DNA of 53,856 nucleotides from Thermoanaerobaculia bacterium (GTDB lineage Bacteria; Acidobacteriota; Thermoanaerobaculia; Multivoradales; UBA5704), in contig JBGAGQ010000041.1 of assembly GCA_044226625.1 (NCBI GenBank), forward strand, positions 1 to 53,856, given 5' to 3'. The translations under genes and the position numbers were made by a program. The notes beneath the pieces are model-generated. The model ran no database searches and was not told the DNA's origin. It saw only the letters and a program-made list of their open reading frames with translations. This document shows positions 21,401 through 39,114 of this stretch, in pieces; positions within the stretch are counted from its first letter, which is position 1, and each line of letters opens with the position of its first letter.

Positions 21401-24400
21401 CTTGTTCGATGCCGGAAACGTCCATCCCCTCACCATCGCCGGGTCGGTGGGCAACCGCGGTCTCGCGCTCCTCGAGAGCAATCCGCAGTCGGCCGGGGAG
21501 ATGTCGTTCCTGTCCGAGCAGTGCGCCACGTTCGACGGGTCGCGCGCCGTGGCCGGGCTCGAAACGCTGTTGGACTACGGATTCGATTTGGACGGCGACG
21601 GCACGATCGCTCCCGCCGAGCGGCGCGACTACGCGTTGCTCGCGCATCGGGTGGCGGGAGTCCTCGTCTACGACGTGACGAACCGCGCGGCGCCTCACCT
21701 CGTGGGACGCATCCGCGTCGGATCCGCCTCGGCGATCACCGCCGACCGTGGCGCGCGCCGCCTCTACGTCTCGATCGGCGCCGAAGGGATCGCGATCGTC
21801 GATTTCGATCGCCTGCCGAACCTCGATCCGCTCGACCGCAACGGCGACGGCCGGGACGACCGGATCGTCGAGACGATTCCGCTCGGACCCGTGGATTCGG
21901 GCAACACGAACGCGCCGGTCTTCGTCGCACCGGAGCTCGGCCTGGTCTTTGCCGGCGGCCAGGGGCGAGGCGTCAAGAGCATCGCGATCGGTCATCCGGC
22001 GCTCTACGCGGTCGATGCGGAATCGGGTGGCACGGGAAGCCCGATCGGTCGGCTGGTGCCGTTCGGAGTTCCGGGCGCCTCCTCCTCCGACACCGGCGCG
22101 TTTCGGTTGATCGCCTATCTGCCCGGGGTCCTCGCTTCCGCGGTGAGGTTCGACGTCGCGAGCCTCGGCGCGTCCGGTGTTTCCCTGCCGCCGCTCGGTC
22201 CGTCGACCGGGCTGTCCGGTGCGCCGAGCGTCGGCTACACGGGCTCTTCGGGCATCACATTCCGCCGCGAGAGCGATGACCCGAGAGAGGACGGCATCTC
22301 GCGTTACGTCTCCGAGCCGATCGTCGCCCTCGGCGACCTGCGCGCCTCGCGCGCTTGGAATCGCACGGCGCGGGAAAACGAAGCGTGCGTCCATTGCATA
22401 CCGCCCGTCCTGCTCCCAGCGGATGCCAAGGAGATCCTCTCCGGAGATTCGATCTCGATCCGGCCGGGCTCGACGCTCGCGACCGAGCTCGCCTCGATCT
22501 ACGGCGCCGAGCGCGCCGCCTCGTTCCGCCTCGACCTCCCTTCAACCCGTTGGGAGATGGCTCCCTCGGTGCGCCAGGAGCCTCGACTCGGAGCCAATTT
22601 CGGCGCCGGCGAAGCGGCACCCGGCACGCTGCTCGGCTCGGGCGAGGCGACGTTTACGGCGACGGATCTCTACGTCAAAGGGCGCGGGCTCGATTTCGCC
22701 TTCACCCGCACCTATCGCAGCCAGACCGCGGGGAGCGGGCCGCTGGGACCCGGTTGGGACTTCGGCTACCACGTCCGCCTGCGCGAGCTGCCCACCGGCG
22801 ACGTCGAGCTCTACGACGGCCGCCTCCGGCGCGAGCGTTTCGAGAAGGGCGCCGACGGTAGCTACCGCTCGCCGAAGGGGTTGTTCGCGGTGCTCACCAA
22901 GAGCAGCTCCGGCTTCCTGCTGATCGAGAGCGACCATTCCTTTGTTCGCTTCGACCTCTCCGGCCGGCTCACCTCGATCGCCGACGGGCTCAAGGATTCC
23001 GAGGCGACCGGCAATGAGATGCGCTTCGAGTACGACGCCGCGGGCGAGCTATCCGGCGTGGTCGACTCGCTCGACCGACGCTATGCGTTGACCTATCGCA
23101 GCGACGGCCGTTTGATCCGCGTCGCCGATTTCGACGGCCGGGTCGTCCAGTACCGTTACGACGACTTGGGCCGCCTGCAAGAGGTGGAGTTGCCGGAGGT
23201 CACTTCCGGGGTGATGCCGGGAGTGGGTGCGCGCGTAACCCGGTATTCGTATGAAACGGTGACGCCCGCGACGGCAACGGCTGCCGCTGCCGAGGATCTG
23301 GCGACCCGCTGGACGGTCGCCGACAACCTCACCCAGATTCTCGATCCGCGGAGTTTGGTGCCACTTGCTCTGACCTTTACCGACGCCGACGGCGATCAAC
23401 GCGCCGACGAGGTGACGAGCGAGCAGTGGGGGATAGGGACGGTGACCTTGGCCTACGACTTCGCCGCCAAGAAGACCATCGTCACCGACCGTCGAAGCCA
23501 TGCCACGACCTACCAGCACGACTCCGAAGGCCGAGCCGTCCGGCGTGAAGACCCGGCGAACGCCGTCTGGGCCTGGTCCTATGACGACGAAGGTCTGCCG
23601 GTCGAAGCCACTTTGCCGCTCGGCGGCAAGACTGAGTGGACGTACGGCACCCGAGCCGACCGCCGCGCCCGCGGCAACGCGACGCTGATCACCGAGACGC
23701 CCGACGAGCGCGGACCGAACGGCAGCCCGGCCACACGAACCACGGAGATCACCTACCAGGGCTGGTCGAACCGGCCGACCCGAGTCGTCGATCCGCGTGG
23801 AACGGAGACGACGATTCGGCGCCTGCCGACCGGCTTGCCGATCGAAATCCATGGCGCCGTCGGCACTCCGGACGAGACGATGACTCGGATCGCCCACAAC
23901 GAGCACGGGCAGCCGACGGAGATCGTCGATCCCAACGGACACCGGACGACGTTCGACTACTTCGACGCCGGTGTGGACCGCGGGTACCTGCAGCGCGTCC
24001 TTCGCGATCCCGCGGGATTGAGCCTGACCACTTCGTTCGATGTCGACGCCCGCGGCAACGTGGTCCGAAGGACCGATCCTCGCGGCGTCCGGACCGATTT
24101 CGCTTGGAACGAAGCGGACTGGCCCGTCTCCACGATGGTTGCCGCGTCCCCGTCGAGCGACGGTGCGCCGGCATTGCGCTACGCGACGCACTACATGCAT
24201 GACGCCATCGGCCAGCTCTTGGAAACCGAAGAGCCGGATGGTGACGACGGCAGCGGGGTGCTCAAGGTCAAGCAGCGGTTCGGACTGCTCGGCGAGTTGG
24301 AGGAGATGCGACACGAGATCGGGCCGGGCACCGAGAGCATCGTGTCGTATGACTACGACGAAAACGTCAACCGGGTGATGATCACGGCCCCGAACGGCCA

Positions 24401-27400
24401 GAAGACCCATTGGATCTACGACGAACGAGATCTGCCGCAGGCGATCACCCGCGGCTTCGGCGCGGCGGAGGCGGTGACCGAGACGCTCGGTTTCGACGCC
24501 GAAGGCGCCTTGATCCGGCGCGTCGATGGTCGATCGAAAGTTTGGCCGATCGAGTACGACGGTTACGGTCGGACGATGATCACTCGAGACCCGCTGGGGA
24601 ATGCAAGCGAGGTCACCTACGACGCGGGGGACAACCCCCTGCTGAGCATGGCGCTCGACGCCAACGGCAACATGCTCGCGGAAACCAAAGCCGAGTACGA
24701 CGCGCTGGGTCGCCGTAAGAAATCGAAGCAGATGCTCTGGGAGCCGGGTGCCACCCGCGCTGCGGCACGGGAGCTGGTGACGACCTATGACTACGACGGT
24801 GTCGGGAACTTGATGGCGATTACCGACCCGCTTGGACACGCGACGACCTATCACTACGATAGCGCCGACCGCCTGAAGATGGTGCGTGACGCCGTCGGCA
24901 ATGAACAGGAGATCGAGCTCGACGGGCAGGGCAACGCCATGCGTTTCATCCGTCGAGAGCAAGTCCCGGTGGGACCGCCGGTGACCGTGATCGAAACCGC
25001 CAAGTACGACGCGCTCGGCCGCCCGATGGAGCGGAGCGACGCCTTGGGCAACACGTGGCACACGACGTGGGATGCGCGGAGCCGCGCTCGGCGGACGACC
25101 GATCCGGAAGGGGCGACGACCATCCGCACGTACGACGGCCTCGATCGCATGGTCCTACAGGAGCGGCCGGAGGGAATCACCGAGCACTGGACCTACGACG
25201 AGAGCTCACGCCTCCGCGCCTATTCCGACGCCAGGAACCAGACGACTCGGTACGACTACGACCCGCTCAACCGTGAGATCGAGATCCGCTGGCCGGACGA
25301 CACGAGGAAGACCTTCGCTTTCGACGCGGCCCACAACGTCCGCGAGATCCGTGACCCCAACGGCAACGTCGTCGTCCAAGAACACGACGGGGCCAACCGC
25401 CTCTTGGTGCGCACCATCACCCCCGCTCCGGGTGTCGTCGGTCCTACGTCCGAGACGTACGCCTATGACGGCTTGAGCCGATTGACGTCGACAACCTCCG
25501 GTGGGCAGACGGCCGGCTTCGAGTACGACTCGCTCTCCCGCGTCGTACGGGAAACCCAGAACGGTCGCGCGGTCGAGTCGACGTACGACGACGCGGGCAA
25601 TCGTGCGGCGCTGCTCTATCCCTCGGGCCTGAAGGTCGGAACCCACTTCGACGAGCTGGATCGGCTTCGATCGGTGATGAGAATGGGTACCTCGGACACG
25701 CCGGTCGCGTCTTACGGTTATCGCGGGCAGGATCTCCTGGCGGAGCGAAATGTCGGCGGCCTCTCGGGCCGGATGGTGTTCGACGGCGCCCGGCGCCTCA
25801 CCGCGACGACCTATCAAGACCTGGCCTCGGCGACGGCCTTCGGCGAGACCCTGGGTTGGAACAAGCGCAATCAGCTCACGAGCCAGTCGCGTGCCGACCT
25901 GAACGACGCAGCGAAGCTCTACCAATACGATCCGGCCGGAAGGATCACGGGAACCCTTTCGTATCGAGGAGAATTGCCCGCCGACCCGACGGGACTCGAC
26001 GGCGAGCGTTTCCGTTACGACACCGCCGACAACCTGACCGAGCAGTCGAAGAAGGCGTTCGGGATCGACCAAGTGACGACGCTGCCCGTCGACCCCTCCG
26101 GTCGCAACCGTCCCGCTTCGATCCACGGCATTCCGCTCACCTGGGATCCAAACGGCAACCTCACCGACAAGGGCGACCTGCACTTCGAGTACGACTACCG
26201 GAATCGCCTATCTCGAGTGACCCGCAGCGGCCAGGAGGTCGCGACCTACGGCTATGACGCCTTCAACCGTCGGGTCGAGAAGTCCGTCGATGGGAGCACC
26301 CAGCTCACCTCATGGTCCGGATGGCAGGCGCTGGAGAAGTCGGAGAACGGTCAACCGACGGAACGGAGAATTTACGGCAACGGCATCGACGAGCTGGTTC
26401 AGCTAGAGAAGGTCGAAGCCGGAGTGAGCCTGACCTACGCGCCGGTCTACGACGCGAAGGGAAACCTCGCCCTGCTGACCGATGCGAACGGCAAAATCGT
26501 CGAGCGGGCCAATACCTCTACCTACGGCCAGACCACCTGGTCCGCGGACTCGACAGCGCCGACGATCACGCAGTTGCGGCTCCGGAGCGGAACGCTGGAG
26601 CTCCGGACGAGCGAGGAGGTACGCCTTGCGGCACTCCTGTCGGCGCTCACGAGCGGCAAGGCCACCCTCGTCGAGACGGGGACGAATCACCTAATCCAGG
26701 TACTTGCGACGCAGCCTCCGGGCATCACCCGGACCCGTCTGGCGCTGACGCCCTCGACCGCGATTTCGCCCGGCACCGAGCTGCGCCTGCGCATGGAGCC
26801 GGAAGCGATCGAAGATCTCTTCGGCCATTCGCTCGATGAGCCTTTCGAGCAGACACTTACCTGGCAATCCACCGCCGACACCGTCCTTGCGGACACGGCA
26901 GCGCCCGAGATATCGCACGTCCTGTTGCGCGGCGCGAGCTTGGAAGTTGGCTTCAGCGAGCCGCTGGACGCCGCGGGTGTCGCCGCCGCGATCCTCGTGG
27001 ACGGCCAAGCACAGACCTGGACCGCAGGAAGCGACGGCGAAGTCTGGACCGCCGCCAATGTGCCGGACGGAGACCATACCCTGACCATTGGCGCCTCGCC
27101 GCTCGATCTTTCGGGTAAGCCCCTCGCGGAGGAATTCGAGAAGCCCTTCCGGATCGAGGCGAGCCATCCCGACCAGATCGTCTACCGGAGGCCCGATTCC
27201 TCGGAGCTTCCGACGTCGGCGACCGGTGCCGTGCTTACCTTCCAGGGCTTGGAGCTCGATCCCGAGACGGGCTTGCTCTACGTGCGCAACCGGTACTTCG
27301 ATCCCGAGCTGGGGCGCTTCATCACGGCCGATCCGTTGGGGTATCCGGACGGCCCGAGCGGGTATGGGTTTGGGGCCGGGGATGCCGTGAATGGTCGGGA

Positions 27401-28259
27401 CCCGATGGGGCTACAGGAAGGGGCGGAGATTCGGCAACGTCAAAAAGATGCAAATCACCTCGGGTTTGATCCGCTTCACGGTCAAGAATCAGCAGAGGCT
27501 ATTCGGCGGACGCTATCCGACCCGTACACTCAAGGTCTTCTTCAAGTCCTGGGCGGTTGTTCCGAAGCCACTCTTGGGGCGATATCGGCGGCAGGTTCCG
27601 CTGGAGCAGCTGCGATTCCCGGACTATTTGCGATGATGCATGGTTCCGACACCTGCGCTGCGGGCTTGAAAACGCTTTACTACGGTCAGTCGAACGACAC
27701 AATCACTGAAGAGGGTCTTGAGAGGGCTCTAATTTATTCTGGCGTTCCTCCAGGGCGGGCGAGATATCTGGCTCAGCTTGGAGACGGCCTTCTAGGGGCG
27801 TTGAACTCGGCGTACGCATCCCGAGCGTTGATGCCGGAGTTTACGGTTCTTCCGCCGCCGACGCCGATGACCAACGAGGAGATACTGGATCTCGGGAAGG
27901 GACCGTTGGCGCCTGAAGCGGCGGCGAATCTAGGGGCTAGCATGGAAAGCAAGCCGCTTGCGCTTGGCATCGATGCTCACCTGGACGCCTTCGCAAGGGC
28001 GAGGGGAGCTTCCACTTGGAAGGAATTCTCAGACAGCACAAATTGGCGATCTGGAGTCCTGGATGCTCTTGCCGATAATGGTCGGACAGTCTATTTCAAT
28101 TTGGACGGCGTAGATGTCTGGGAGGGTTTGCAACGCGCTGCCTCCGGCAGGGGAGGCGCCACCGACTGGGAGCTTCTGATGATCAAGCAGAATCCGCAGT
28201 TCTGGGATAAGCTGATCTTCTGGAAAGACGGTTCGCCAGTCCCGAATCCATTTCAGTAG
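12498..28259 (+). CDS. Giant Rhs/YD-repeat polymorphic toxin (5253 aa) with Ig-like stalk, LVIVD-like propeller, DUF6531-like domain, Rhs core and C-terminal toxin CT1
   Basis: Signal peptide; many DTTAP...ATDAAGN Ig repeats; LVIVD-like repeats; GEATFTATDL..KGRGLDFAFTRTYRSQ..GPLGPGW; YD repeats; core DPETGLLYVRNRYFDPELGRFITADPLGYPDG...NGRDPMGL ending at 27413; lower-GC variable tip after it. Confidence 0.95.
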   Translation: MRIPMPSLRTLRSFAWGLSLLLSVSAARAVGTPVYSEPFETYGAPGEPPGWFDSSPGHPGNEAPGQFKVWNDPTLAGNHAFGHKGASESYSHYRARTFAAADGFRFEGRLLRTKSKAHLGVTFLSDFPVRDEHYRLALTNDNGTVRLEGRGSGSANGDTESDVSLSLNVWYRFVVEVAKEGSLQRIRAKVWKQGQGEPAAWQIDATDSSGERPTGWIGVWAEGSGEKYWDDLNVSSSAAVDQDPPSIQITEGGSVLVDGALFARSVVPTIQVVDASPVTSSATLDAQLFASGTAVSAEGSHTLVVSATDAAGNSATKTVHFTIDTTAPVFVSILPPNGSLTRDPSVVLSGQVTGAATLSIDGAPTALSGTSFSSAVLPLADGVRTIPLVAADAAGNSTTFLYRIERDSLAPQISIASPASPVVGSAPIEVSGTATDAHLASVSVGGAAATLSGSTFSRAGVPLVEGGNSIAVQATDAAGNVANLSISVVLDTQPPVVTITEEEPGQPAQPLVDGSRFHRDVTPRFTATDATELSVVARLDGVAFVSGSTVSEEGPHEVSVEALDAAGHRTARLLRFEIDRTPPEISGLDPEEGSLLRTSPVVIHGRAAAAASVSVGGRPATLSGELFTSAPIDLSDGANTLAIAAEDAAGNRTLATLHLILDTAPPALSIDEPAEAAVLGASPITVAGSASDPHLEGVRVGGIEAVLAAGTYRRDGVPLAAGANTLVVEARDGAGNTTRLERHVVLDADPPVVRLLVAGAELLDGARFAQAISVAIEVEDATATTVEARLDGTPYASGAAIGTDGVHTLSVVATDAAGHRTARAVEFSIDASAPVFGAVAPEDGTILSAAQVSISGRVTDATSVEVDGAAATLQGNDFTAGPFALVEGARTFHLVALDEAGNRAETTLTVVRDATAPVVTISTPAPDALIGTTSISVTGTTTDPHLQSVAVNGVAATLASGGSSFTAAQVPLVEGDNELVARALDRAGNAAEARRSVTLDTTAPEIAILDPAAGTVVAADSIEVSGSVSDAHLDRVTVGGVAAVVTSGSFRATVALVEGRQTLTATAVDRIGHSAEATVSVERRSTAPRIEIDSPAEGFRTSAGSIAVAGTVEEREGLVVTVAGLPATLSAGRFTVAQIPLVEGENRLIARARDPLGNEGVHTRVVVRDTEAPRFVQSDPADGALAIPAGSALLLTFSEELAVPAASSIRLSSGGAELGVGLELTGETLVVRPSSSLPAGASVSLEATAAIRDLAGNPLANPTTLTFHVADRVLPAAPVLSPQPPAALCAEVVTLTGSAEPGLALLVEGGAGSVSGRADDQGAFSLAVPLAPNALNRLRLYALDASGERSSPAVADLYADCVAPAVVSAERLADAFAVGFSEEIAAASATGSVGLLGAGGPIEGSIELAPDGRSLRFVPAVPVAETAPVRLTVETSIRDLAGNALPSPFVRRFGGEAGESFFAGTALDAGVGRPLAGVLVVVEATDGLPLDLPLEQTTLADGRFQLAVPVGAHRVRFSREGYTPVFRTVATDSTAGVDVFDPRLSPGAPTVTVASPGGRATGSEGAYLDVPAGALAETAAFSVTALSEQALPAVLPLGWSPRGAAWIEVGSSLSQPATLHLPVEAPNGVELVIAALDAATLTWRVVGSAQVSSGAVAISVSRGGGYAALDADRGATAPPAPVPGTPLGASTPGGEVASASVAFDPEQVLPGQRSEATVGYDLGTDPAALPSGTPLTLEVREELRLLGGDVRREPPFLADLSIYRTSDGAPRSKFFLRPSEAAELLPIELGRDDVTVDRYGSGGAGGNVVGPGGGSVTSTEGDRLDIPAGALDAATVVTVSRRTIAELPLALPAGLAPGDVLGIVQLNLGGRTLHLSAALSLALGSAPPSGEDGLLLSAVDRGRGVVLEAVAHLLPTAEGWTTAPIDPLDLPFDGVRRGGFYLFVRTPPLGFFRGTCFGTNGVARGGIEVSVRDSGVRPWLQASVEPNGRYVLPAVVGANTVLARDPATATGGDSVEVSTAIPTAGARVNLDLQLQVIGPRLVSTTPVDGATGVPPGIEPTATFSEAVAPTSLSGAIRLTEIAADGTERTLDAAIEAQGALVRVVPAATLAPETLHELSVGTGVLDLEGNALENAAAIRFTTAEAAPENGALDLTKVSLLEPDASGMARVEGAPGAVPAHTLVVVENATSLVSVPSAEAAADGSFALEVAATVRDTLLLHVLQPGANELVVELGPFLHRDRRGALVGPRGGRFTTVDGYAVGVAGGTFADLTRVRLAPLPTGSEAPALPDWLANGADFTLDFGGATATKPLEIALPRPAGATGDGPFLLLRRIDLDGDRAWMLHDLLRVDGSRLTTTEAPAGQAAPLAVATLTGADAPGGGVVGNAGQNPKAYLPGAAFAGTYRIAAPTVPLAFVAASYPPGGGVSFAFGEDEGIGAAITAAIARLLPGNAILLPVRLGRPVHLVIRDLSSGVLRFDGELGAPPVAGEVTVLPIDALGDQRAPWPVGGSPLRFFALTAAAGDAEILPGVMVRFLGGQLSVSAQDGALPAGIQARLMGIDDGAVSVADSSPEGSLALSVPAVLGRRYVLGLGAKIATNEAIEVRWSEALSADLDGITVLDADGRDVAPTKTVLDVGDTVRLAPESAWQAGGTYTLHLGPPVTDAAGNRWNRSFDLRFTVGSSEVLDTFDLASVREIARLGNWLFVAADADGLVVLDAADPRHLRNAVAPAFAFELPYRDPVRAVAIDAHNRILIAGGGVQGFGQLKVLDPLRFDPAAIAAHPDDPEVRFAAFRGTALISDPLQPDVGTQLPEGAPRKIAILSNDVTDRWEAGSAAPHPLSATLEAIGTEGLATLSVFGDDAAPHAPVTLRSGGRWARVLADESGHFVVDLPVRRGDEVEIKRNQNTLAYVATLGAGIEVVDVNAIFDRPEPTSPRASDLLGVYSGEHDPSLVLCGEGVSDLGSALLDLDGLFDAGNVHPLTIAGSVGNRGLALLESNPQSAGEMSFLSEQCATFDGSRAVAGLETLLDYGFDLDGDGTIAPAERRDYALLAHRVAGVLVYDVTNRAAPHLVGRIRVGSASAITADRGARRLYVSIGAEGIAIVDFDRLPNLDPLDRNGDGRDDRIVETIPLGPVDSGNTNAPVFVAPELGLVFAGGQGRGVKSIAIGHPALYAVDAESGGTGSPIGRLVPFGVPGASSSDTGAFRLIAYLPGVLASAVRFDVASLGASGVSLPPLGPSTGLSGAPSVGYTGSSGITFRRESDDPREDGISRYVSEPIVALGDLRASRAWNRTARENEACVHCIPPVLLPADAKEILSGDSISIRPGSTLATELASIYGAERAASFRLDLPSTRWEMAPSVRQEPRLGANFGAGEAAPGTLLGSGEATFTATDLYVKGRGLDFAFTRTYRSQTAGSGPLGPGWDFGYHVRLRELPTGDVELYDGRLRRERFEKGADGSYRSPKGLFAVLTKSSSGFLLIESDHSFVRFDLSGRLTSIADGLKDSEATGNEMRFEYDAAGELSGVVDSLDRRYALTYRSDGRLIRVADFDGRVVQYRYDDLGRLQEVELPEVTSGVMPGVGARVTRYSYETVTPATATAAAAEDLATRWTVADNLTQILDPRSLVPLALTFTDADGDQRADEVTSEQWGIGTVTLAYDFAAKKTIVTDRRSHATTYQHDSEGRAVRREDPANAVWAWSYDDEGLPVEATLPLGGKTEWTYGTRADRRARGNATLITETPDERGPNGSPATRTTEITYQGWSNRPTRVVDPRGTETTIRRLPTGLPIEIHGAVGTPDETMTRIAHNEHGQPTEIVDPNGHRTTFDYFDAGVDRGYLQRVLRDPAGLSLTTSFDVDARGNVVRRTDPRGVRTDFAWNEADWPVSTMVAASPSSDGAPALRYATHYMHDAIGQLLETEEPDGDDGSGVLKVKQRFGLLGELEEMRHEIGPGTESIVSYDYDENVNRVMITAPNGQKTHWIYDERDLPQAITRGFGAAEAVTETLGFDAEGALIRRVDGRSKVWPIEYDGYGRTMITRDPLGNASEVTYDAGDNPLLSMALDANGNMLAETKAEYDALGRRKKSKQMLWEPGATRAAARELVTTYDYDGVGNLMAITDPLGHATTYHYDSADRLKMVRDAVGNEQEIELDGQGNAMRFIRREQVPVGPPVTVIETAKYDALGRPMERSDALGNTWHTTWDARSRARRTTDPEGATTIRTYDGLDRMVLQERPEGITEHWTYDESSRLRAYSDARNQTTRYDYDPLNREIEIRWPDDTRKTFAFDAAHNVREIRDPNGNVVVQEHDGANRLLVRTITPAPGVVGPTSETYAYDGLSRLTSTTSGGQTAGFEYDSLSRVVRETQNGRAVESTYDDAGNRAALLYPSGLKVGTHFDELDRLRSVMRMGTSDTPVASYGYRGQDLLAERNVGGLSGRMVFDGARRLTATTYQDLASATAFGETLGWNKRNQLTSQSRADLNDAAKLYQYDPAGRITGTLSYRGELPADPTGLDGERFRYDTADNLTEQSKKAFGIDQVTTLPVDPSGRNRPASIHGIPLTWDPNGNLTDKGDLHFEYDYRNRLSRVTRSGQEVATYGYDAFNRRVEKSVDGSTQLTSWSGWQALEKSENGQPTERRIYGNGIDELVQLEKVEAGVSLTYAPVYDAKGNLALLTDANGKIVERANTSTYGQTTWSADSTAPTITQLRLRSGTLELRTSEEVRLAALLSALTSGKATLVETGTNHLIQVLATQPPGITRTRLALTPSTAISPGTELRLRMEPEAIEDLFGHSLDEPFEQTLTWQSTADTVLADTAAPEISHVLLRGASLEVGFSEPLDAAGVAAAILVDGQAQTWTAGSDGEVWTAANVPDGDHTLTIGASPLDLSGKPLAEEFEKPFRIEASHPDQIVYRRPDSSELPTSATGAVLTFQGLELDPETGLLYVRNRYFDPELGRFITADPLGYPDGPSGYGFGAGDAVNGRDPMGLQEGAEIRQRQKDANHLGFDPLHGQESAEAIRRTLSDPYTQGLLQVLGGCSEATLGAISAAGSAGAAAIPGLFAMMHGSDTCAAGLKTLYYGQSNDTITEEGLERALIYSGVPPGRARYLAQLGDGLLGALNSAYASRALMPEFTVLPPPTPMTNEEILDLGKGPLAPEAAANLGASMESKPLALGIDAHLDAFARARGASTWKEFSDSTNWRSGVLDALADNGRTVYFNLDGVDVWEGLQRAASGRGGATDWELLMIKQNPQFWDKLIFWKDGSPVPNPFQ

Positions 28260-28615: not shown

Positions 28616-28873
28616 GGTATCCCGTCCACCTGTCCGCCGAGGTTCCTCGGTGCCCCGCAGGCTGAGTTTTGGCGGCTTCCGCGCTCGTTCGGTGTCCCGT
28701 CCACCTGTCCGCCGAGCCTCCCCGCTGTTCCTGGGGGCTGATTTTGGTGGCTTGTCCGCTCGTTCGGGCTCCCTGAACGGCCCGCCTACCGACTCCACTT
28801 TCGGCTTTTCCCCCTCCTCAGACCGTTCTACAGGTACCCGAGCCATCCGGAAGCACACCTTCTCTGTGGACGG
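28616..28873. repeat. Cassette-boundary repeat, copy 1 (short unit A + long unit B)
   Basis: GTCCACCTGTCCGCCGAG at 28624 and 28699. Unit B is bounded by inverted CCGTCCAC (28697) / GTGGACGG (28866). Confidence 0.9.
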
Positions 28874-28912
28874 TCGAGTGCTTTGTCTTCGGCGCTCCAC
28901 TTCCCTTCTTCG

Positions 28913-29827
28913 TCAGTCTGGCACGTAGAAGCCTGAGAGCACGCCGCTCCAAGCCTGAAACCGCCTGCGTTTGCCAGTTCGCGCCGGCTCTCTCTCGCCC
29001 TTCCAGACCTCGGCGGGGCGTGAGACCCTGCAGGTTCTGGTGCGGCCTGACGTGGTTGTACCAGAGGCGAAAGAGGGGCAGGTCCGGCAACTCTTCGCAC
29101 GCGCTCGGTTTTGCGGCCCGCAGCTCGCGCAGGCATTGCTTGAAGGTGCCGAAGAAGCGTTCGATTCGCCCGTTCTGCCAGGGGGCATGGAGTACGGTCC
29201 GCTGGTGGCGGATGCCCAGCAGCCAAAGGGCCAGACCGAAGAGCTTCGACGTAAAGGTGGCCTCGTTGTCGGTTCGGAGCGTCGCTGGCCGACCGAAGCG
29301 ATCGATCAGGTCGAGTACCACGCGAAGCACGGCGACGGTGGTCTTGCGATCGAGCTCCTGAAGCGCAAGGCAGGCGCGAGTGCCGTGATCGATCACGCCG
29401 AGGAGGGGGCGTAGACCGCTCTTGGTTCCAACGTACGTGAGATCGAGCGCCCAGATGCAGTTCTTCCCGTAGCGCGCGGTCTTCGCTGCCGCAGGTTGCG
29501 GCGGGCTCGCATTACCTCCTCCTGACTGCTTCTGAGCAGGTTGGCGACGTAGCTCTTGCCGATGGTCATCCCCTTCGGCCCGGAGTACAGGCGGTTGAAG
29601 GTGCACGCGATCGTACGGCAGCCGGCCTTCGGAATCAGCGCCTTGAGCCGGATCACTTCCTTCCGGACCCAGGGCGGCTTGGGGCGGAAGCCCAGGTGCA
29701 CCCGGGCGGTCGGAGTGCTCGCTTGGCGTCGGCGCGTTAAGGCCAGGATGCTTTGGCGATGGCCGCGGAGAGCCAGTAGGGCCGCAAGTCCGACGAGCCC
29801 GAGGAGGCAGAAACACAGAGCCATCAT
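28913..29827 (-). pseudogene. DDE integrase-core (rve) protein, copy 1 (subtype alpha), two frameshifts
   Basis: Same 915-bp length as the intact copy at 33473-34387. One G is missing near 29468 and one extra G is present near 29016, so the protein is split across frames in the ORF track. Confidence 0.88.
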
Positions 29828-29878
29828 GGGCTGAAGGTACCGCAGGGGACGAGTTCTCGGCGCCGATCGCTGCGAGGG

Positions 29879-29962
29879 TTCTCGGACGGCTCGGACCCAC
29901 GTCAGGGCGGTTCGGATCGAGGTCTGGACGGCTCGGATTGGGGTCTGGACGACTCGGGCTCA
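29879..29962. repeat. Four imperfect 21-bp tandem units
   Basis: TTCTCGGACGGCTCGGACCCA / CGTCAGGGCGGTTCGGATCGA / GGTCTGGACGGCTCGGATTGG / GGTCTGGACGACTCGGGCTCA, lying between the integrase upstream end and the orphan Rhs cassette. Confidence 0.65.
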
Positions 29963-29966
29963 GACG

Positions 29967-32873
29967 TTCGCTTACGACGCGGCCCACAACGTCCGCGAGA
30001 TCCGTGACCCCAACGGCAACGTCGTCGTCCAAGAACACGACGGGGCCAACCGCCTCTTGGTGCGCACCATCACCCCCGCTCCGGGTGTCGTCGGTCCTAC
30101 GTCCGAGACGTACGCCTATGACGGCTTGAGCCGATTGACGTCGACAACCTCCGGTGGGCAGACGGCCGGCTTCGAGTACGACTCGCTCTCCCGCGTCGTA
30201 CGGGAAACCCAGAACGGTCGCGCGGTCGAGTCGACGTACGACGACGCGGGCAATCGTGCGGCGCTGCTCTATCCCTCGGGCCTGAAGGTCGGAACCCACT
30301 TCGACGAGCTGGATCGGCTTCGATCGGTGATGAGAATGGGTACCTCGGACACGCCGGTCGCGTCTTACGGTTATCGCGGGCAGGATCTCCTGGCGGAGCG
30401 AAATGTCGGCGGCCTCTCGGGCCGGATGGCGTTCGACGGCGCCCGGAGGCTCACCGCGACGACGTATCAAGACCTGGCCTCGGCGACGGCCTTCGGCGAG
30501 ACCCTGGGTTGGAACAAGCGCAATCAGCTCACGAGCCAGTCGCGTGCCGACCTGAACGACGCAGCGAAGCTCTACCAATACGACCCGGCCGGAAGGATCA
30601 CGGGAGCCCTTTCGTATCAAGGAGAGCTGCCCGCCGACCTGACGGGACTCGACGGCGAGCGTTTCCGTTACGACACCGCCGACAACCTGACCGAGCAGTC
30701 GAAGAAGGCGTTCGGGATCGACCAAGTGACGACGCTGCCCGTCGACCCCTCCGGTCGCAACCGTCCCGCTTCGATCCACGGCATTCCGCTCACCTGGGAC
30801 CCGAACGGCAACCTCACCCACAAGGGCGACCTGCACTTCGAGTACGACTACCGGAATCGCCTCTCTCGGGTGACCCGCAGCGGCCAGGAGGTCGCGACCT
30901 ACGGCTATGACGCCTTCAACCGTCGGGTCGAGAAGTCGGTCGATGGGAGCACCCAGCTCACCTCGTGGTCCGGCTGGCAGGCACTGGAGAAGTCCGAGAA
31001 CGGTGAGCCGACGGAACGGAGAATCTTCGGCAACGGCATCGACGAGCTGGTCCAGGTGGAGAAGGTCGAAGGGGGAGCGAGCCTGACCTACGCGCCGGTC
31101 TATGACGCGAAGGGAAACCTCGCCCTGCTGACCGACGCGAACGGCAAAATCGTCGAACGGGCCAATACCTCTACCTACGGCCAGACCACCTGGTCTGCGG
31201 ACTCGACGCCGCCGACGATCACGCAGTTGCGGCTCCGGAGCGGAACGCTGGAGCTCCGGACGAGCGAGGAGGTACGCCTGGCGGCACTCTCGACGGCGCT
31301 CACGAGCGGCAAAGCCACCCTCGTCGAGACGGGGACGAATCACCGAATCCAGGTACTTGCGACGCAGCCTTCAAGCGTCACCCGGACCCGTCTAGTGCTG
31401 ATGCCCTCGACCGCGATTGCGCCCGGAACCGAGCTGCGCCTGCGCCTGGAGCCGGAATCGATCGAGGATCTTTTCGGCCACTCGCTCGATGAGCCTTTCG
31501 AGCAGACGCTCACCTGGCAGCCCACCGCCGACACCGTCCTCGCGGACACGGCGCCGCCCGAGGTATCGCACGTCCTCCTGCGCGGAACGAGCGTGGAGGT
31601 CGGCTTCAATGAGCCGCTGGATGCCGCGGGTGTCGCCGCCGCGATCCTCGTGGACGGCCAAGCACAGACCTGGACCGTAGGAAGCGACGGCGAAATCTGG
31701 ACCGCCGCCAACCTGCCGGATAGCGACCATACCCTGACCATTGGCGCCTCGCCGCTCGATCTTTCGGGTAAGCCCCTCGCGGAGGCATTCGAAAAACTCT
31801 TCCGGATCGAGGCGAGCCACCTCGACCAGATCGTCTACCGGAAACCCGATTCCTCGGAGCTTCCGACGTCGGCGACCGGTGCCGTGCTTACCTTCCAGGG
31901 CTTGGAGCTCGATCCAGAGACGGGCCTGCTCTACGTCCGGAATCGGTACCTCGATCCGGAGTTGGGACGGTTTGTCACGGCGGACCCGCTGGGGTATCCG
32001 GATGGGCCGAGCGGGTATGGATTTGGGGCAGGGGATGCAGTGAATGGACGGGATCCGATGGGGCTTGCCAATGCAACTTCTGGTGTTTCGATTCCCAAAG
32101 CTAACCCAGCGGCTACCGAGGACGCCAAGCGGAGTCTTAAATTTCTGGGAAGGATGGCCTCCAGGGCAAATACACACCTCTTAAACATACCTGTCTACGT
32201 CGCGCGGATTCCGGGCGCAACCATGGCATCGCTCGGTAATTTGTCGAAACACGCGAGTTACTTTGCCGACTGCTTGATCGTGCACACTGAAGAGTGCGCG
32301 CGAGAATTACTGGGCGCGATTAGATCCACTCCGGATTACGTCGATTCCCAAACGAGGGCCTACCTCGACGCACCGGCTGAGGAGCATGCTGATGCGTGGA
32401 GCGATCAATTGACGCTGACGGCTCTTTTCGGGCTTTTGGGTTCTACAAGTGAAGTCGAAGCTACATACCTGGGGAACATGAGGGCTCCTCGATTACCATT
32501 GCCTGAACCTGAGGTTTCCCCTCTTCCCTCTGTTCCAAAGCCAGGGCAGGTCCCAAGAGCACTATCGAATGCGGAGGTTCGGGCCTGGTACAACGCTCGG
32601 GTTCGTACTGTCGATGTGTCCGGCGCCCTCACAAGGGAAACCGCGGAGCGAGTTTTTGCAGCGCGGAATGCACTTAAGGTCGAGGCTCGCGGTATGATGG
32701 GAGACAGGGCTGCAGCGGCTGAATTGGAACGCACGGATCCGATCCGGACATTCGAGTTCTACGTCCAGAAGTACTCGGGGCAAGGATACTCAGGAGAGTT
32801 ACTCTGGCAGCGGATCATTCAGGGAGGCAGAACACCAAATAAGGCCGTGAACGAGCGGTTCGGGGTAGACTGA
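29967..32873 (+). CDS. Orphan (start-less) Rhs core + toxin tip CT2
   Basis: 29967-32065 is a colinear near-identical copy of 25314-27412 (constant offset 4653). It diverges right after DPMGL into a different tip (..LSNAEVRAWYN..RNALKVEARGMMGDR..VNERFGVD). No signal peptide or ATG start. Confidence 0.92.
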   Translation, partial: FAYDAAHNVREIRDPNGNVVVQEHDGANRLLVRTITPAPGVVGPTSETYAYDGLSRLTSTTSGGQTAGFEYDSLSRVVRETQNGRAVESTYDDAGNRAALLYPSGLKVGTHFDELDRLRSVMRMGTSDTPVASYGYRGQDLLAERNVGGLSGRMAFDGARRLTATTYQDLASATAFGETLGWNKRNQLTSQSRADLNDAAKLYQYDPAGRITGALSYQGELPADLTGLDGERFRYDTADNLTEQSKKAFGIDQVTTLPVDPSGRNRPASIHGIPLTWDPNGNLTHKGDLHFEYDYRNRLSRVTRSGQEVATYGYDAFNRRVEKSVDGSTQLTSWSGWQALEKSENGEPTERRIFGNGIDELVQVEKVEGGASLTYAPVYDAKGNLALLTDANGKIVERANTSTYGQTTWSADSTPPTITQLRLRSGTLELRTSEEVRLAALSTALTSGKATLVETGTNHRIQVLATQPSSVTRTRLVLMPSTAIAPGTELRLRLEPESIEDLFGHSLDEPFEQTLTWQPTADTVLADTAPPEVSHVLLRGTSVEVGFNEPLDAAGVAAAILVDGQAQTWTVGSDGEIWTAANLPDSDHTLTIGASPLDLSGKPLAEAFEKLFRIEASHLDQIVYRKPDSSELPTSATGAVLTFQGLELDPETGLLYVRNRYLDPELGRFVTADPLGYPDGPSGYGFGAGDAVNGRDPMGLANATSGVSIPKANPAATEDAKRSLKFLGRMASRANTHLLNIPVYVARIPGATMASLGNLSKHASYFADCLIVHTEECARELLGAIRSTPDYVDSQTRAYLDAPAEEHADAWSDQLTLTALFGLLGSTSEVEATYLGNMRAPRLPLPEPEVSPLPSVPKPGQVPRALSNAEVRAWYNARVRTVDVSGALTRETAERVFAARNALKVEARGMMGDRAAAAELERTDPIRTFEFYVQKYSGQGYSGELLWQRIIQGGRTPNKAVNERFGVD

Positions 32874-33091
32874 TGACGACGATTCGATCGGTCAATGAGT
32901 TGACGAGAGCGACAGTCACCTGGAGGAGGGTGGCACCTGGCTGCTGGCTCACAACGGTCGCAGGGGAGGAGTGTTCGTTGGAGATGAATGATTTTCCAGA
33001 TGAGCCTATGTATACAGTCCGAGCTTTTGGGGAATCTGTTGACATCGAAGACGCCCCAGGCTCGTGGGCAATAGAGATGCCCCCACCGTGA
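32873..33091 (+). CDS. Putative immunity protein for CT2
   Basis: 72 aa; TGATG overlap with the CT2 stop; acidic MNDFPDEPMYT motif. Confidence 0.8.
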   Translation: MTTIRSVNELTRATVTWRRVAPGCWLTTVAGEECSLEMNDFPDEPMYTVRAFGESVDIEDAPGSWAIEMPPP

Positions 33092-33170: not shown

Positions 33171-33436
33171 TTGTGCCGTTGTCCCGTCCACCTGTCCGCC
33201 GAGCTTCTCGGTGCCCCGCAGGCTGAGTTTTGGCGGCTTCCGCGCTCGTTCGGGTTGTGCCGTCCACCTGTCCGCCGAGCCTCCCGGCTGTTCCTGGGGG
33301 CCGATTTTGGTGGCTTGTCCGCTCGTTCGGGCTCCCTGAACGGCCCGCCTACCGACTCCACTTTCGGCTTTTCCCCCTCCTCAGCCCGTTCTACAGGCGC
33401 CTGAGCCATCCGGAAGCACAGCTCCTCCGTGGACGG
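33171..33436. repeat. Cassette-boundary repeat, copy 2 (A + B)
   Basis: Core at 33186 and 33262, preceded by tandem TTGTGCCG/TTGTCCCG. B is bounded by GCCGTCCAC/GTGGACGGC. Confidence 0.9.
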
Positions 33437-33472
33437 CCGATCTCCCTGTCTTCGTCTCTTCCCCTTCCCTCC

Positions 33473-34387
33473 TCAGTCCAGCACGTAAAAGCCTGAGAGC
33501 ACCCCGCTCCAAGCCTGAAACCGCCTGGGCTCGGCAGTCTGCGCCGGCTCGGTCTCGCCCTTCCAGGCCTCGGCGGGCGTGAGACCCTGCAGGTTCTGGT
33601 GCGGCCTGACGTGGTTGTACCAGAGGCGAAAGAGTCGGAGATCCGGTATCGCTTCGGCCTCGCTCGGCCTTGCGGCCCGCAGCTCTCGCAGGCATTGCTT
33701 GAAGGTACCGAAGAAGCGTTCGATCCGCCCGTTCTGCCAGGGGGCATGGAGTACGGTCCGTTGGTGCCGGATGCCCAGCAGCCATAGCGCCAAGCCGAAG
33801 AGCCTCGAGGTAAAGGTGGCCTCGTTGTCGGTCCGAAGGGTGGCCGGCCGACCGAAGCGATCGATCAGGTCGAGCAGGACGCGGAGCACTGCGACGGTGG
33901 TCTTGCGATCGAGCTCCTGAAGCGCGAGGCAGGCGCGAGTGCCGTGATCGATCACGCCGAGGAGGGGGCGTAGACCGCTCTTGGTTCCAACGTACGTGAG
34001 ATCGAGCGCCCAGATACGGTTCTTCCCGGTAGCCTGCGGTCTTCGCCGCCGCAGGTTGCGGCGAGCGCGCATCACCTCCTCCTGACTGCTTCTGAGCAGG
34101 TTGGCGACGTAGCTCTTGCCGATGGTCATCCCCTTCGGCCCGGAGTATAGGCGGTTGAAGGTGCACGCGATCGTGCGGCAGCCGGCCCTCGGAATGAGCG
34201 CCTTGAGCCGGATCACTTCCTTCCGGACCCAAGGCGGCTTGGGGCGGAAGCCCAGGTGCACCCGGGCGGTCGGAGTGCTCGCTTGGCGTCGGCGCGTTAA
34301 GACCAGGATGCTTTGGCGATGGCCGCGGAGAGCCAGTAGGGCCGCAAGTCCGACGAGCCCGAGGAGGCAGAAACACAGAGCCATCAT
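33473..34387 (-). mobile_element. Intact DDE integrase-core/transposase (304 aa, subtype beta) with N-terminal hydrophobic segment
   Basis: MMALCFCLLGLVGLAALLALRG...PKPPWVRKEVIRLKA...IWALDLT...LRTDNE..(35 aa)..NGRIERFFGTFK...WYNHVRPHQNLQGLTPAEAW. Canonical D-D(35)-E spacing counted by hand. The start is set by comparison with copy 1; the ORF-track extension to 34705 is antisense Rhs. Confidence 0.92.
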
Positions 34388-34444: not shown

Positions 34445-36665
34445 ACGATCACCTCTGCTCCGGGTGTCGTCGGCCCTACGTCTGGGACGTACGCCTATGA
34501 CGGCTCGAGCCGATTGGCGTCGACGACCTCCGGTGGGCCGACGGCCGGCTTCGAGTACGACTCGCTCTCTCGCGTCGTGCGCGAAACTCAAAACGCTCGC
34601 GCTGTCTAGTCGACATACGACGACGCGGGTCGAGCGGAAGGCGGACGACCAAACCCAGACGACGGTCTGGAACGGCTGGCAGTCGATCGAAGAGTACGCG
34701 GGCAACGCCCTCGACGAGCAGAAAGTCTACGGCCTCGGTCTCGACGAGGTGGTCGAGCGGGCGAAAGCGGACGGGGCGGGCGGCTTCGATCGCTATGGGT
34801 TGCTCTATTCCTCGACGGGCGAGCCGGCGGTGCAGATCGCCGCGGACGGCCGCCCCGTCGAGCGGTATGAACACTCCACGCTCGGAGAACGGAAAGTCCT
34901 TGTCGACGTCGAGCGCCCGACCGTAGGCCAGGTGTCGGCGACGCCGAGCAGCATCCGGATCGAGCTGTCGGAGCAGGTTCGGGCGCCGGGTGAGACAACC
35001 GGTGCCTCCGGTTCGCTTCGCGCCCAAGGGCCCGATATCGCTCTTACCGACGCCGCGACTGGCGCCTCGATCGATGTGATCGCGAAGCTCGCCCCCGCGC
35101 CCGGCCCCGGCCTCGAGCGCCGCCGGTTGGAGATCGACGTGCCGAGCCCGCCGCCTGCTGGCACTCAGGTGAAGTTGAGCCTGGCACCGCAAGCGCTCGA
35201 GGACTTCTTCGCCAACCGCCCGGACGGCATGTCGGAGTGGACCTTCGCCTGGCCGGCATCGGGACTCTCGATCGTCGAGGACACGGCGCCGCCTGAGCTG
35301 GTGCGGGCGCTGCTCCGCGACGGCAAGATCGAGGCGACGTTCTCGAAGGCGGTCACGCCTGAGGGCTTGGGCGATGCCGTCAGCGTCGACGGTGCGTCGG
35401 TCGCCTGGACTGTTTCTGGGAACGGACTCGTCGCGACGACCTCGGCTGCGCTTTCGGGAGGAGCGCATCACGTCGAATTCGGCACGGCCCCGATCGACCT
35501 CGCGGGGAAAGGTTTGGCGACTCCGATCGCGGTCGACCTGACCGTTCCTTCGGCGCTCCTCCGCGCCCAGGCGGGGAACGTCCTCCTCGTCTTCGAGCCC
35601 CGCAATCCGCGGGAGTTGGACCAATCGCCGACCGGACAGCAGGCGAGCTTCCAAGGCCACCCGGTCGATCCGGAAACGGGCTTCGTCTACCTGCGGAACC
35701 GGTACTTCGATCCGGAGCTGGGACGCTTCATCACGGCGGACCCGATGGGGTACCCGGACGGCCCGAGCGACTACGCCTTCGGGGCTGGGGATGTGGTGAA
35801 TGGGCGGGATCCGATGGGGCTCGAAAGACCGCTTCCAAGGTCCATTCAGCCGATTCGTCCTGACGAATCGCTGAGCGAACAGATGATGGAGGACCAAGCT
35901 TGGAAGGCATTCTGGCGCTATCAGGACCGTCTCGAACGGATCGAGAACGCGATCGCTCGCGGCCTCCAAAGTGTTCCGAATACCGCCACTGAGGAGGAGT
36001 GGCGAGATGCCGTTCAGAGCGAGCTCGCGCGTGAGATCGGTCCAACCTACGCTGAGGCGGAAATGTGGAATCGCTTCGGTCCCGCAGGTCCCTGTGAGAC
36101 GAATCAAAGCAGGATCTTTAGGAATGTCGGCAACACGGCCGGTACAATTGCTCCCCACCTCTGGTTCGCGTTTCAGGTGGAGATGGCTGTTCTTCCTTTC
36201 GCCGATGCGGGTGCGGTCGGTGTCGAAGCCTCGTATCTGGAGGGCTTGAGGGCTCCTCGGGTGCCTCTGCCGGAACCGCAGATTCCTAGGCAATGGGGCA
36301 GCGGGTTTTCTGGCCCGGAAGAGTTGACGCAGAACCTCCCGAGGAGGATTGCAACAGTCGATCCCAGCACCGTAAGGTTTAGCCAGGACAGCATCGGCCG
36401 AACCTTCGGCGAGGGCGGGACGCTTCGCGAGGCGATCGAAGGACTGCGAGACGGTTCGATATCTCCGGAGGCTTTCCCTCCTATACGTGTCTTTGAGCGC
36501 AACGGCCTCAGGTTTACGCTTGACAACCGACGGTTGTTTGTTTTTCAACAGGCAGGCGTCCCGATACCTTCGGTTCAGGCAACCGTAGAGGAGATCGCGG
36601 CAGATGCATGGAAGTTCACAACACGTAACGAAGGCATTTCAATTCGCGTCAGAGGTGGACTATGA
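34445..36665 (+). CDS. Orphan chimeric Rhs core + toxin tip CT3 (ParB/Srx-like)
   Basis: 34445-34630 is a decayed copy of 25413-25598 (TAG at 34607). From ~34626 a divergent Rhs core reads open to DPETGFVYLRNRYFDPELGRF...DPMGL (35822). The tip has VRFSQDSI...PPIRV...FTLDNRRL. Confidence 0.88.
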
Positions 36666-36916
36666 AGCTTGTCGAACGTGCCCAGGAAGTTAGAACACGC
36701 GAGGATCTGGAGGTTTTCGTGCTCGAGCTAGGCGCAGACCTCCAGGCGAATCCGAGCGAATGGACGAACCCGAACCTGGGGTCATTTCTCGAAGCGATGG
36801 CAGCCTGGATCTCAGACATGGAAGCCTACTATCAGAACACCGGCCAGGAGTACTCGGATCTGTCACCGTGGAAAGTCGTTGCCGACATGTTGATGGCTGC
36901 GCGCATTTACGAGTAG
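36662..36916 (+). CDS. Putative immunity protein for CT3 (resembles DUF7660)
   Basis: ATGA overlap with the toxin stop; motif WxNxxLxxFLEAMAAWxxD...W..vAxxLxAAxIYE. Family name recalled, not searched. Confidence 0.8.
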   Translation: MKLVERAQEVRTREDLEVFVLELGADLQANPSEWTNPNLGSFLEAMAAWISDMEAYYQNTGQEYSDLSPWKVVADMLMAARIYE

Positions 36917-36921: not shown

Positions 36922-37107
36922 GTTGTGCCGTCCACCTGTCCGCCGAGCCTCCCGGCTGTTCCTGGGAGCTGATTTTGGTGGCTTGTCCGCTCGTTCGGGC
37001 TCCCTGAACGGCCCGCCTGCCGACTCCACTTTCGGCTTTTCTCCCTCCTCAGCCCGTTCTACAGGTGCCCGAGGCACCCGGAAGCACACCTTCTCTGTGG
37101 ACGGTCG
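36922..37107. repeat. Cassette-boundary repeat, copy 3 (solo unit B, no integrase)
   Basis: Core at 36930, 13 bp after the immunity stop; similarity ends 3 bp past GTGGACGG. Confidence 0.9.
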
Positions 37108-37737: not shown

Positions 37738-38031
37738 GGTGTCCCGTCCACCTGTCCGCCGAGGTTCCCCGGTGCCCCGCAGGCCGAGTTTTGGCGGCTT
37801 CCGCGCTCGTTCGGGTTATCTGAACGGCCCGTCTTCCAACTTTTCTCTTGTGTGCCGTCCGTCTGTCCGCCGAGCCTCCAGGCTGTTCCTGGGGACTGAT
37901 TTTGGTGGCTTCCGCGCTCGTTCGGGCTCCCTGAACGGCCCGCCTACCGACTCCACTGTCGGCTTTTCCCCCTCCTCAGCCCGTTCTACAGGAGCCCGAG
38001 GCATCCGGAAGCACACCTTCTCTGTGGACGG
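37738..38031. repeat. Cassette-boundary repeat, copy 4 (extended A + B)
   Basis: Core at 37746 and variant GTCCGTCTGTCCGCCGAG at 37857. Confidence 0.9.
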
Positions 38032-38067
38032 TCGAGTGCTTTGTCTTCGGCGCTCCACTTCCCTTCG

Positions 38068-39012: not shown

Positions 39013-39114
39013 CCTGAACGGCCCGCCTACCGATTCCACTTTCGGCTTTTCCCCCTCCTCAGCCTTTTCTACAGGCGCCCGAGCCATCCGGAAGCACACC
39101 TCCTCCGTGGACGG
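39013..39114. repeat. Cassette-boundary repeat, copy 5 (partial unit B)
   Basis: CCTGAACGGCCCGCCTACCGA...GTGGACGG; the core 18-mer is missing. Confidence 0.85.

Follow-up and report, generated by a model that had tools for sequence, protein, structure and literature searches.

A non-coding tail behind a DDE integrase in an Acidobacteriota Rhs array, probably the DNA end of the integrase module

The Rhs array and its repeated tail

The DNA analysed here, referred to throughout as the window, is a stretch of 53,856 nucleotides (contig JBGAGQ010000041.1, positions 1 to 53,856, GenBank assembly GCA_044226625.1) from a Thermoanaerobaculia bacterium of the Acidobacteriota. It contains an array in which each unit comprises a 5'-truncated Rhs fragment with its own C-terminal tip, an immunity-like open reading frame (ORF) and an rve/rve_3 integrase gene that is read from the other strand, its 3' side turned towards the immunity gene. 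A short non-coding unit, B, lies between that gene and the stop codon of the integrase; a first-pass annotation had proposed B to be the selected functional unit of the locus, either an attC-like folded recombination site or a structured RNA. Of that proposal a discrete, constrained and integrase-linked unit survives; the attC identity is rejected and the structured RNA is weak. B is most likely the DNA site of the integrase, a cis-acting (recombination) end of the gene module that it adjoins, because the same tail design recurs with related integrases beside secreted-toxin genes in distant bacteria; we place the probability of this reading, drawn from sequence comparison, at about 0.6. The copies of the tail in the window, and the parts of its first copy, are as follows.

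28620..28692, minus strand: A1, 73 bp, an older copy of the terminal stretch of a B-like tail, in tandem outside B
28693..28876, minus strand: B copy 1; in integrase-strand order the inner inverted motif, then the terminal motif and tip
28693..28716, minus strand: terminal motif of B copy 1, TGTCCCGTCCACCTGTCCGCCGAG on the plus strand and ...CGGACAGGTGGACGGGACA on the integrase strand, which is the family-wide terminus
28866..28876, minus strand: inner inverted motif of B copy 1, GTGGACGG plus 3 nt, counterpart of the YGTCCRC motif of the family
28877..28912, minus strand: fast-diverging spacer that separates B from the integrase stop codon (28913-28915)
33178..33254, minus strand: A2, an older partial tail copy
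33256..33439, minus strand: B copy 2, with a 9-bp inverted repeat
36924..37107, minus strand: solo B copy 3, starting 8 nt past the stop codon of a DUF7660 immunity-like gene, with no adjoining integrase
37738..37850, minus strand: A4', a longer old partial tail of about 111 bp
37851..38034, minus strand: B copy 4, its left arm mutated to CCGTCCGT
39013..39117, minus strand: B copy 5, right half only
40133..40187, plus strand: a weak match to the left part of B, flanked by integrase 5 and an IS3-type transposase remnant

Across the whole 6.6-Mb assembly there are nine B-like matches, every one of them inside the window. They include four full copies with 93-100% identity (28697-28873, 33260-33436, 36928-37104 and 37855-38031), one right half (39013-39114), and three older left-part copies, designated A, which are 79-81% identical, about 75-111 bp long and in tandem just outside B (match spans 28622-28698, 33184-33254 and 37744-37841); the ninth match is the weak piece at 40133-40187. 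The five highly similar copies counted initially are therefore four full copies and a half, their high similarity standing as described. B as first defined, from CCGTCCAC at its start to GTGGACGG at its end (28697-28873), corresponds exactly to the span from the inner motif through the terminal motif; these 177 bp delimit a real unit, although the shared block is wider (28693-28876), starting 4 nt earlier at TGT(C/G) and ending 3 nt later, so that the length of B as a unit is 177-184 bp. The solo copy indeed breaks off 3 bp past its right repeat, GTGGACGG, at 36924-37107. In every copy bar the solo one B begins 36 nt from the integrase stop codon, and the distance from stop codon to tip in the window tails is 217-220 nt.

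The inversion of the two ends is equally real: copies 1 and 3 show 8 bp of it and copy 2 shows 9 bp, whereas copy 4 is left with 6 bp because its left arm reads CCGTCCGT. When B was shuffled, an 8-bp inverted repeat no more than 14 nt from both ends arose in 107 of 200,000 sequences, and one anywhere with arms at least 100 nt apart in 672 of 20,000.

B is less diverged than the third-codon positions of the gene beside it, a comparison on which the original claim could have foundered. Copies 2 and 1 differ at 11 of 184 positions of B vs 31 of 181 integrase third-codon positions (p=0.0009), copies 2 and 4 at 16/184 vs 30/144 (p=0.002), and copies 2 and 5, for which only the right half of B is available, at 5/105 vs 27/181 (p=0.01). 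Divergence of B within the window is thus 2-3 times below that of integrase third-codon positions. The spacer was correctly singled out as strongly different between subtypes, with 56-64% identity in MAFFT alignments vs 91-95% for B, and with 10 of 36 or 16 of 39 sites differing according to whether one other aligner or MAFFT is used. Between units 1 and 2, identity runs from 96% in the 5' part of the integrase gene through 91% in its 3' part and 59% in the spacer to 94% in B, and because identity along the block is so patchy, gene conversion among copies is a possible contributor to the similarity of B.

A tail design shared by related integrases

About 1100 relatives of the integrase are found in the protein collection, mostly aligned over the catalytic half only, and a genome scan yielded 77 relative loci with 38-56% integrase identity, selected by integrase similarity alone. 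A fuzzy scan of these 77 loci for the terminus motif CGGAC-NNN-CGGACGGGACA after the integrase gave 21 hits, and none for the reversed motif. When a fixed terminus pattern was mapped relative to the stop codon in the 71 loci with at least 330 nt of sequence after it, 26 had it on the integrase strand, ending 213-285 nt past the stop, compared with 0/71 on the opposite strand and 1/71 upstream, and the length of the window tail falls within this range. More than half of the terminus-bearing loci (15/26) also carry, 36-93 nt past the stop, an exact 7-mer inversion of the motif. The fixed pattern under-counts and missed at least 5 true cases; all five copies on one "Multivoradales" contig are negative for it, yet each has the inner motif CTGTCCACGG and a terminus whose spacing differs slightly, and a copy on an Undibacterium plasmid shares the layout with a GAAC variant. 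One of the 26 loci, L020, comes from an unpublished genome, and its exclusion alters no conclusion. Relatives that keep the end motifs and the tail length belong to several phyla.

Read from the stop codon, the tail consists of an inverted GTCC-type motif, a variable interior, an A-run and a double GGAC motif ending in ...GGGACA. In an alignment of three window tails with 15 relatives, only the inner motif, the A-run (about 45 nt before the end) and the terminal double motif with its tip are conserved, mean column identity being 38%. Orientation is the same in these 18 tails, in the five copies of the Multivoradales contig and in all window copies. A coding reading of B was discarded, given that the open frames of the window are without counterpart and the in-frame run before the tip is 6-37 codons in eight relatives. 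As a separate observation, in 10 beta- and gammaproteobacterial relatives (L079:4815-6626, L089:4732-5997, L051:4976-5926, L090:3249-4058, L058, L071, L085, L088, L206 and L214) the A-run forms a ribosome-binding site followed by an ATG that precedes the 19-nt terminal motif by 30 nt; in five of the ten a frame of more than 100 codons crosses the tip into an RTX, lipase or cadherin-like gene, the tail giving a start codon and short leader to the variable cargo. The window has ATC at this place, not ATG.

The first-pass annotation had named covariation as a check on its claim, and the inner and terminal end motifs do co-vary, although the family fold returned by RNAalifold is a single 6-8-bp end helix. 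In that helix 89.6% of cells pair (G-U allowed) vs 30-47% in slid controls, and three pairs have changed on both sides, a number matched by 15 of 500 shuffles. Matched variants are CCGTCCAC/GTGGACGG in the window, CCGTCCGC/GCGGACGG in L029, TGTCCGT/ACGGACA in L046 and CGTTCGC/GCGAACG in L068. In Undibacterium both direct terminal units read GAAC and the inner motif GTTC; because all three units share the base change and direct units cannot pair with one another, we read the motifs as repeated binding sites for a protein; that the two direct units changed in step speaks for recognition by a protein.

B itself is rare as DNA. Among 61 related genomes it matches, besides its own genome, a 50-nt piece in genome G003, located in another Rhs array, and a 24-nt piece of chance size in G039; BLAST found no similarity of B to the family tails beyond about 29 nt. 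A 20-mer allowed two mismatches hit 87 of 92 family genomes, mostly as coding-sequence noise, its only exact match outside the window in these 92 being in G003:C68; a two-mismatch hit on contig C130 of the own genome lies inside a queD-like gene and was set aside as chance. Five of 43 stretches from a metagenome scan (L175, L189, L190, L181 and L191) are related by BLAST and reading, the other 38 being judged unrelated from flanks and BLAST only, and in a scan of viral contigs an integrase adjoins the motif in one stretch of eight (L227). A literature search, with subscription journals outside its coverage, found no description of such an integrase-tail module.

The tip as a joint

Homology between related loci ends at or within about 10 nt of the ...GGGACA tip. 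This is so at the A|B and immunity|A junctions of the window, between the flanks of L175 and L189, and between L089 and L058, where the L089 tip is joined to the 3' portion of a gene found complete in L058. At G003:C23 a decayed integrase directly abuts the last 12 nt of the terminus, all that is kept of it, and beyond lie an immunity-like gene, a toxin tip and an Rhs core in the same layout as in the window. The tip has the outer form 5'-TG...CA-3', since ...GGGACA, present in all copies and in the relatives, reads TGTCCC from outside. In the genomes of five relatives there are 1-3 tips each, every one directly after an integrase. A contig of DNA run X1, ending at window position 28690, contains a further B copy from the same sample, whose left flank is absent from both window and assembly; a different strain, or a locus that did not assemble, may be its source. 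L058 and L089, from two related genomes, share both flanks of the module but differ by blocks of about 2.8 kb that lie on opposite sides of it, as though cargo had been swapped around a module that stayed in place.

The region of the tip is often duplicated in tandem, at a spacing of 23-161 nt: in L068 (4798-4863, three units), L024 (5183 and 5323), L046 (4742 and 4903), L181 (two units 119 nt apart), L190 and four of the five copies on the Multivoradales contig (L054, L033, L041 and L048). Such stutters look like the footprint of repeated events at the tip, and the A-B tandem of the window is one more such duplication.

The integrase

Four copies of the integrase gene, which in this assembly is confined to the window locus, accompany the tails.

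28916..29827, minus strand: integrase copy 1, rve and rve_3 domains, frameshifted
33476..34387, minus strand: integrase copy 2, 304 aa, the sole copy with an open frame and complete catalytic D, D, E
38071..38503, minus strand: integrase copy 4, lacking its 5' part and fused to a C-terminal fragment of Rhs
39154..40101, minus strand: integrase copy 5, 316 aa, open frame, first catalytic D changed to G (ALGLTY)

The catalytic D, D and E are kept across the family and in copy 2, with a K seven residues after the E. Copies 2 and 5 are 96.7, 96.7 and 85.6% identical at codon positions 1, 2 and 3, a pattern that, judged from the two sequences, is the mark of a gene evolved under selection. Copy 5 is itself probably inactive, because its N-terminal third (the first ~130 residues), which cannot be aligned with the family, is unlike that of its relatives and its first catalytic Asp is Gly. 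The best NCBIfam matches of the integrase are IS481 and then IS3. In the window protein (33476-34387) and 11 relatives the N-terminus is a hydrophobic segment of about 20 aa followed by a basic stretch; the segment replaces the first helix-turn-helix of IS481 transposases, which is unusual for a transposase.

The array and its cargo

The remaining members of the array are listed below, together with one junction that recurs in the discussion of the left end.

12498..28259, plus strand: main Rhs-type protein, 5253 aa, whose 3' end faces the module 1 terminus
28268-28612: small ORF, facing the module 1 terminus together with the main Rhs 3' end
29878..29958, plus strand: junction between the upstream side of integrase 1 and Rhs fragment 2, with two exact copies of GGACGGCTCGGA
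30057..33091, plus strand: orphan Rhs fragment 2, with a different C-terminus; includes a small ORF (32873-33091)
34464..36916, plus strand: orphan Rhs fragment 3; includes a DUF7660 ORF (36662-36916)

The other boundaries of the units differ within the Rhs core, at the equivalents of 25295 and 25412, which fits independent joining events by whatever mechanism. Several further observations concern the surroundings. The N-terminal part of the giant Rhs-type protein (12498-15998) holds seven Glucodextran_B repeats and several bacterial Ig-like domains. The toxin tip of Rhs fragment 2 (32417-32869) recurs with 98% identity at 38502-38954, where it is joined on its left directly to the truncated integrase 4 and is without an immunity gene. 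The stretch from the solo B to the next module (37108-37737) has no Rhs homology and contains a 70-aa ORF (37484-37696) with a weak DUF2283 match. A different IS3-type transposase remnant (40197-40487, minus strand, rve_3/rve_2) ends about 10 nt before the B-like piece at 40133-40187. At 40914-41144, just before three minus-strand tRNA genes (41194-41562), there are about eleven tandem 21-bp units beginning CGAATTCGAATTT, the array as a whole being partly palindromic.

What lies beyond the tip in the relatives, in many of them Rhs, CdiA-like, LHH or type-I-secretion cargo, was tallied by a Pfam scan of 24 terminus-bearing loci, 23 of them with a downstream ORF. Six have on the tip side an Rhs protein (L033, L046, L059), an LHH-nuclease protein (L055), a PT-VENN protein (L091) or a haemagglutinin-repeat protein (L093); at least three further loci have type-I-secretion substrates, three have housekeeping genes (L028, L078, L087), and the remaining loci gave no domain match. 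RTX, cadherin-like and lipase cargo occurs where type-I-secretion ABC/HlyD genes lie directly upstream of the integrase (L051, L071, L079, L085, L090), a linkage that is not several-fold independent because these loci come from a few Betaproteobacteria that are related to one another. Small HEAT or ankyrin ORFs precede large unassigned proteins in L034 and L069, the tip-side gene of Undibacterium is a repeat-protein gene of 38.8 kb, and L046 and L039 are arrays with small opposite-strand ORFs between successive modules, as in the window. Insertion sequences are reported to disrupt orphan modules (Poole et al. 2011), and integrons have been drawn on as a parallel for effector/immunity arrays by Kirchberger et al. 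2017 (PMC5361080), who state outright that an integrase had yet to be implicated in such insertions.

A proposed module with one end, and its alternatives

The module would consist of a DDE (rve) integrase gene of about 300 aa, a short, freely evolving spacer and the ~180-bp tail B, in which one inverted GTCC-type site comes first and two direct GGAC-type sites with the ...GGGACA tip come last. The integrase would bind the 7-8-nt GGAC/GTCC sites, its assembly on a single end would rely on the inverted inner site together with the double site at the terminus, and DNA would be cut and joined at the tip. Cutting and joining at the tip would explain why every boundary between module and foreign toxin or immunity DNA lies exactly there. 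Orphan arrays might arise through one-ended mobilisation of the module along with its neighbouring DNA, through integration of circles of cassette plus module, or simply through frequent insertion into tolerant loci. A bolder proposal, which we regard as possible but doubtful, is that the module is a DDE recombination device of a kind not described before, in effect one-ended and dedicated to polymorphic-toxin loci (Rhs, CdiA-like, type-I-secretion substrates), with the tip as the joint for capturing or displacing new toxin/immunity DNA. If that were true, orphan-cassette arrays would be integrase-built, and not the work of homologous or illegitimate recombination alone. All this bears on how displaced toxin tips and orphan immunity arrays are assembled: an integrase clade and its candidate cognate end stand here at the cassette boundaries, giving a defined protein and a defined substrate of about 180 bp for bench work. 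If the link only reflects insertion-tolerant loci, B would be the end of an unusual insertion sequence.

Several findings weigh against a DNA end. No left inverted end occurs among the 25 longest inverted pairs of each window unit, and no upstream inverted end was found in 13 of 14 inspected relatives, L035, with two, being the exception. In the type-I-secretion-linked relatives homology begins about 8 nt before the start codon, and in one complete genome the DNA common to two paralogues is confined to the stretch from ~8 nt ahead of the start codon to the stop codon and to the last ~54 nt of the tail. The best left-end candidate, the GGACGGCTCGGA pair at 29884 and 29926, is partly common to L175 and L189 but weak and unconvincing. 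No target-site duplication is evident at the solo copy, B is not dispersed beyond its sole locus in the assembly, and no joints or strand-switches were seen in the assembled contigs of three DNA runs. The integrase scores 93-137 bits against an IS481 cut-off of 224 and 75-112 bits against an IS3 cut-off of 160, below both, and only one copy of four looks functional. Among the 71 mapped loci 45 do not match the terminus pattern (5 of these carry it at other spacing). Complementarity of the inner and terminal motifs fits a stem in RNA or single-stranded DNA equally well, and the interior of B is kept in the window and not across the family, so that gene conversion could explain part of the local conservation. 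Because the enzyme falls below both cut-offs and a matching left repeat is missing, B is filed as the end of an IS481/IS3-like module and not as a proven member of either family.

It is unlikely that B is instead made as RNA, in the 3' untranslated region of the integrase gene or as a small RNA, with the end motifs closing a regulatory or guide domain. The family-wide complementarity of these motifs and the selection of their helix by RNAalifold agree with such an RNA, as do the z-score of the minimum free energy on the minus strand (-2.43, with 1 of 200 shuffles as good, vs -1.39 on the plus strand) and the purine-rich integrase strand, whose share of 0.51-0.71 in 20 tails (0.64-0.67 in those of the window) is an asymmetry suggestive of transcription. 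An Rfam scan of 24000-44000, however, gave nothing on B and three tRNAs only, the family alignment has no second conserved pair, and of 55 pairs predicted for the window copies none is compensated and 7 are broken in one copy. Mean z over 20 tails is a modest -1.19 on the sense strand, where four are positive, and -0.91 on the antisense; a stem of 6-8 bp around some 160 nt is weak by itself, and pairing does not need both Undibacterium direct units to change with the inner one. The short internal hairpins of the first-pass annotation exist as written but are unremarkable by these z-scores and by a terminator scan (1 site found vs 0.6 expected), which, with a one-helix consensus fold, leaves little of its structured RNA. 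Its other suggestion, an attC-like folded single-strand site of an integron-type system, is barely conceivable: a conserved site after each cassette and imperfect internal palindromes recall one, but B goes with a copy of the integrase and not with each cassette by itself, the fold scores do not clearly stand out, the neighbour is a DDE rve enzyme and not of the IntI tyrosine type, and the ends TGTCCCGTCCAC... and ...GTGGACGGTCG show no R''/R' GTTRRRY core.

Other explanations keep B as DNA but detach it from the gene. A separate element between the inverted motifs, resembling a miniature inverted-repeat transposable element (MITE) and moved by the integrase independently of the integrase gene, would account for a solo copy that ends exactly at both motifs, for subtype similarity that falls at the inner motif (B 94% vs spacer 59-72%), and for the end motifs being the only inverted pair in the locus; a non-coding unit of 184 bp with an 8-9-bp terminal inverted repeat and no conserved reading frame in relatives would suit it too. 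It is nonetheless distinctly unlikely, as in 15 of 26 relatives the inner motif keeps to a set position, 36-93 nt past the stop, which suits a built-in part and not independent insertions, every tip in the five other genomes adjoins an integrase, and the genome shows neither dispersal nor a target duplication at the solo copy. Somewhat harder still to credit is a functionless B carried along in a duplicated and gene-converted block of Rhs 3' part, toxin tip, immunity gene and decayed insertion sequence. The patchy identity of units 1 and 2 (96/91/59/94%), the three broken integrase copies of four and the unconserved interior of B in relatives are what this would predict; the end motifs and tail length are, however, kept behind integrases only 40-55% identical in several phyla, the end motifs co-vary, and conversion leaves unexplained how the 36-nt spacer escaped between two converted tracts. 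An invertible switch, flipped by the neighbouring recombinase and toggling expression of the adjoining toxin locus, is highly improbable despite a ~170-bp segment between inverted repeats that lies beside a recombinase gene and faces toxin genes, and despite the ribosome-binding site and ATG reading outward near the tip in type-I-secretion-linked relatives. The 18 aligned tails, the five further copies and all window copies are in one orientation, the contigs of the three runs contain no strand-switch joints, the recombinase is neither of the tyrosine nor of the serine kind, and homology stops at the tip, while a segment that inverts is flanked by conserved DNA beyond each of its repeats.

Relation to known systems

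As the DNA end of an integrase module, B is most readily compared with IS481 and IS3 elements, with which the module shares a DDE rve enzyme, a TGT outer end and a length of about 1.2 kb; the tip of B, TGTCCCGTCC, equals the 10-nt inverted-repeat tip given for the IS3-family ISPa57 (PMC7378034). The module is unlike them in its sub-cut-off scores, the lack of an upstream left repeat, a long tail (213-285 nt) with an inner inverted site, its 1-3 undispersed copies per genome, and a hydrophobic N-terminus in place of the first helix-turn-helix. Mobilisation from one end is known from ISEcp1-type elements and Tn3-type one-ended transposition, which resemble the module in having one precise end with variable DNA beyond, the window units running from a fixed tip to variable points in Rhs. 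These elements, whose transposases are of other families, carry a second repeat that can be recognised, and replicative one-ended events are not evidenced by the window data. In Mu, Tn7 and Tn552, rve-type transposons, several short transposase sites are spread over 100-200 bp of one end, and the repeated short sites across one end of the window module appear similar; these transposons differ in possessing two such ends and much larger multi-protein machineries.

With the integron platform the array has in common an integrase by a fixed junction, variable gene content beyond it and promoterless cassette arrays; it differs in a DDE rather than tyrosine enzyme, in the absence of attC features, and in an integrase module repeated within the array vs once at its head. 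Comparable in setting are the polyimmunity loci at which Zhang et al. 2012 (PMC3482391) describe XerC/D genes, where, as here, a recombinase gene stands beside arrays of toxin fragments and immunity genes. The recombinase of the window is of another class, and here it comes with a putative cognate DNA end, defined from sequence down to its tip.

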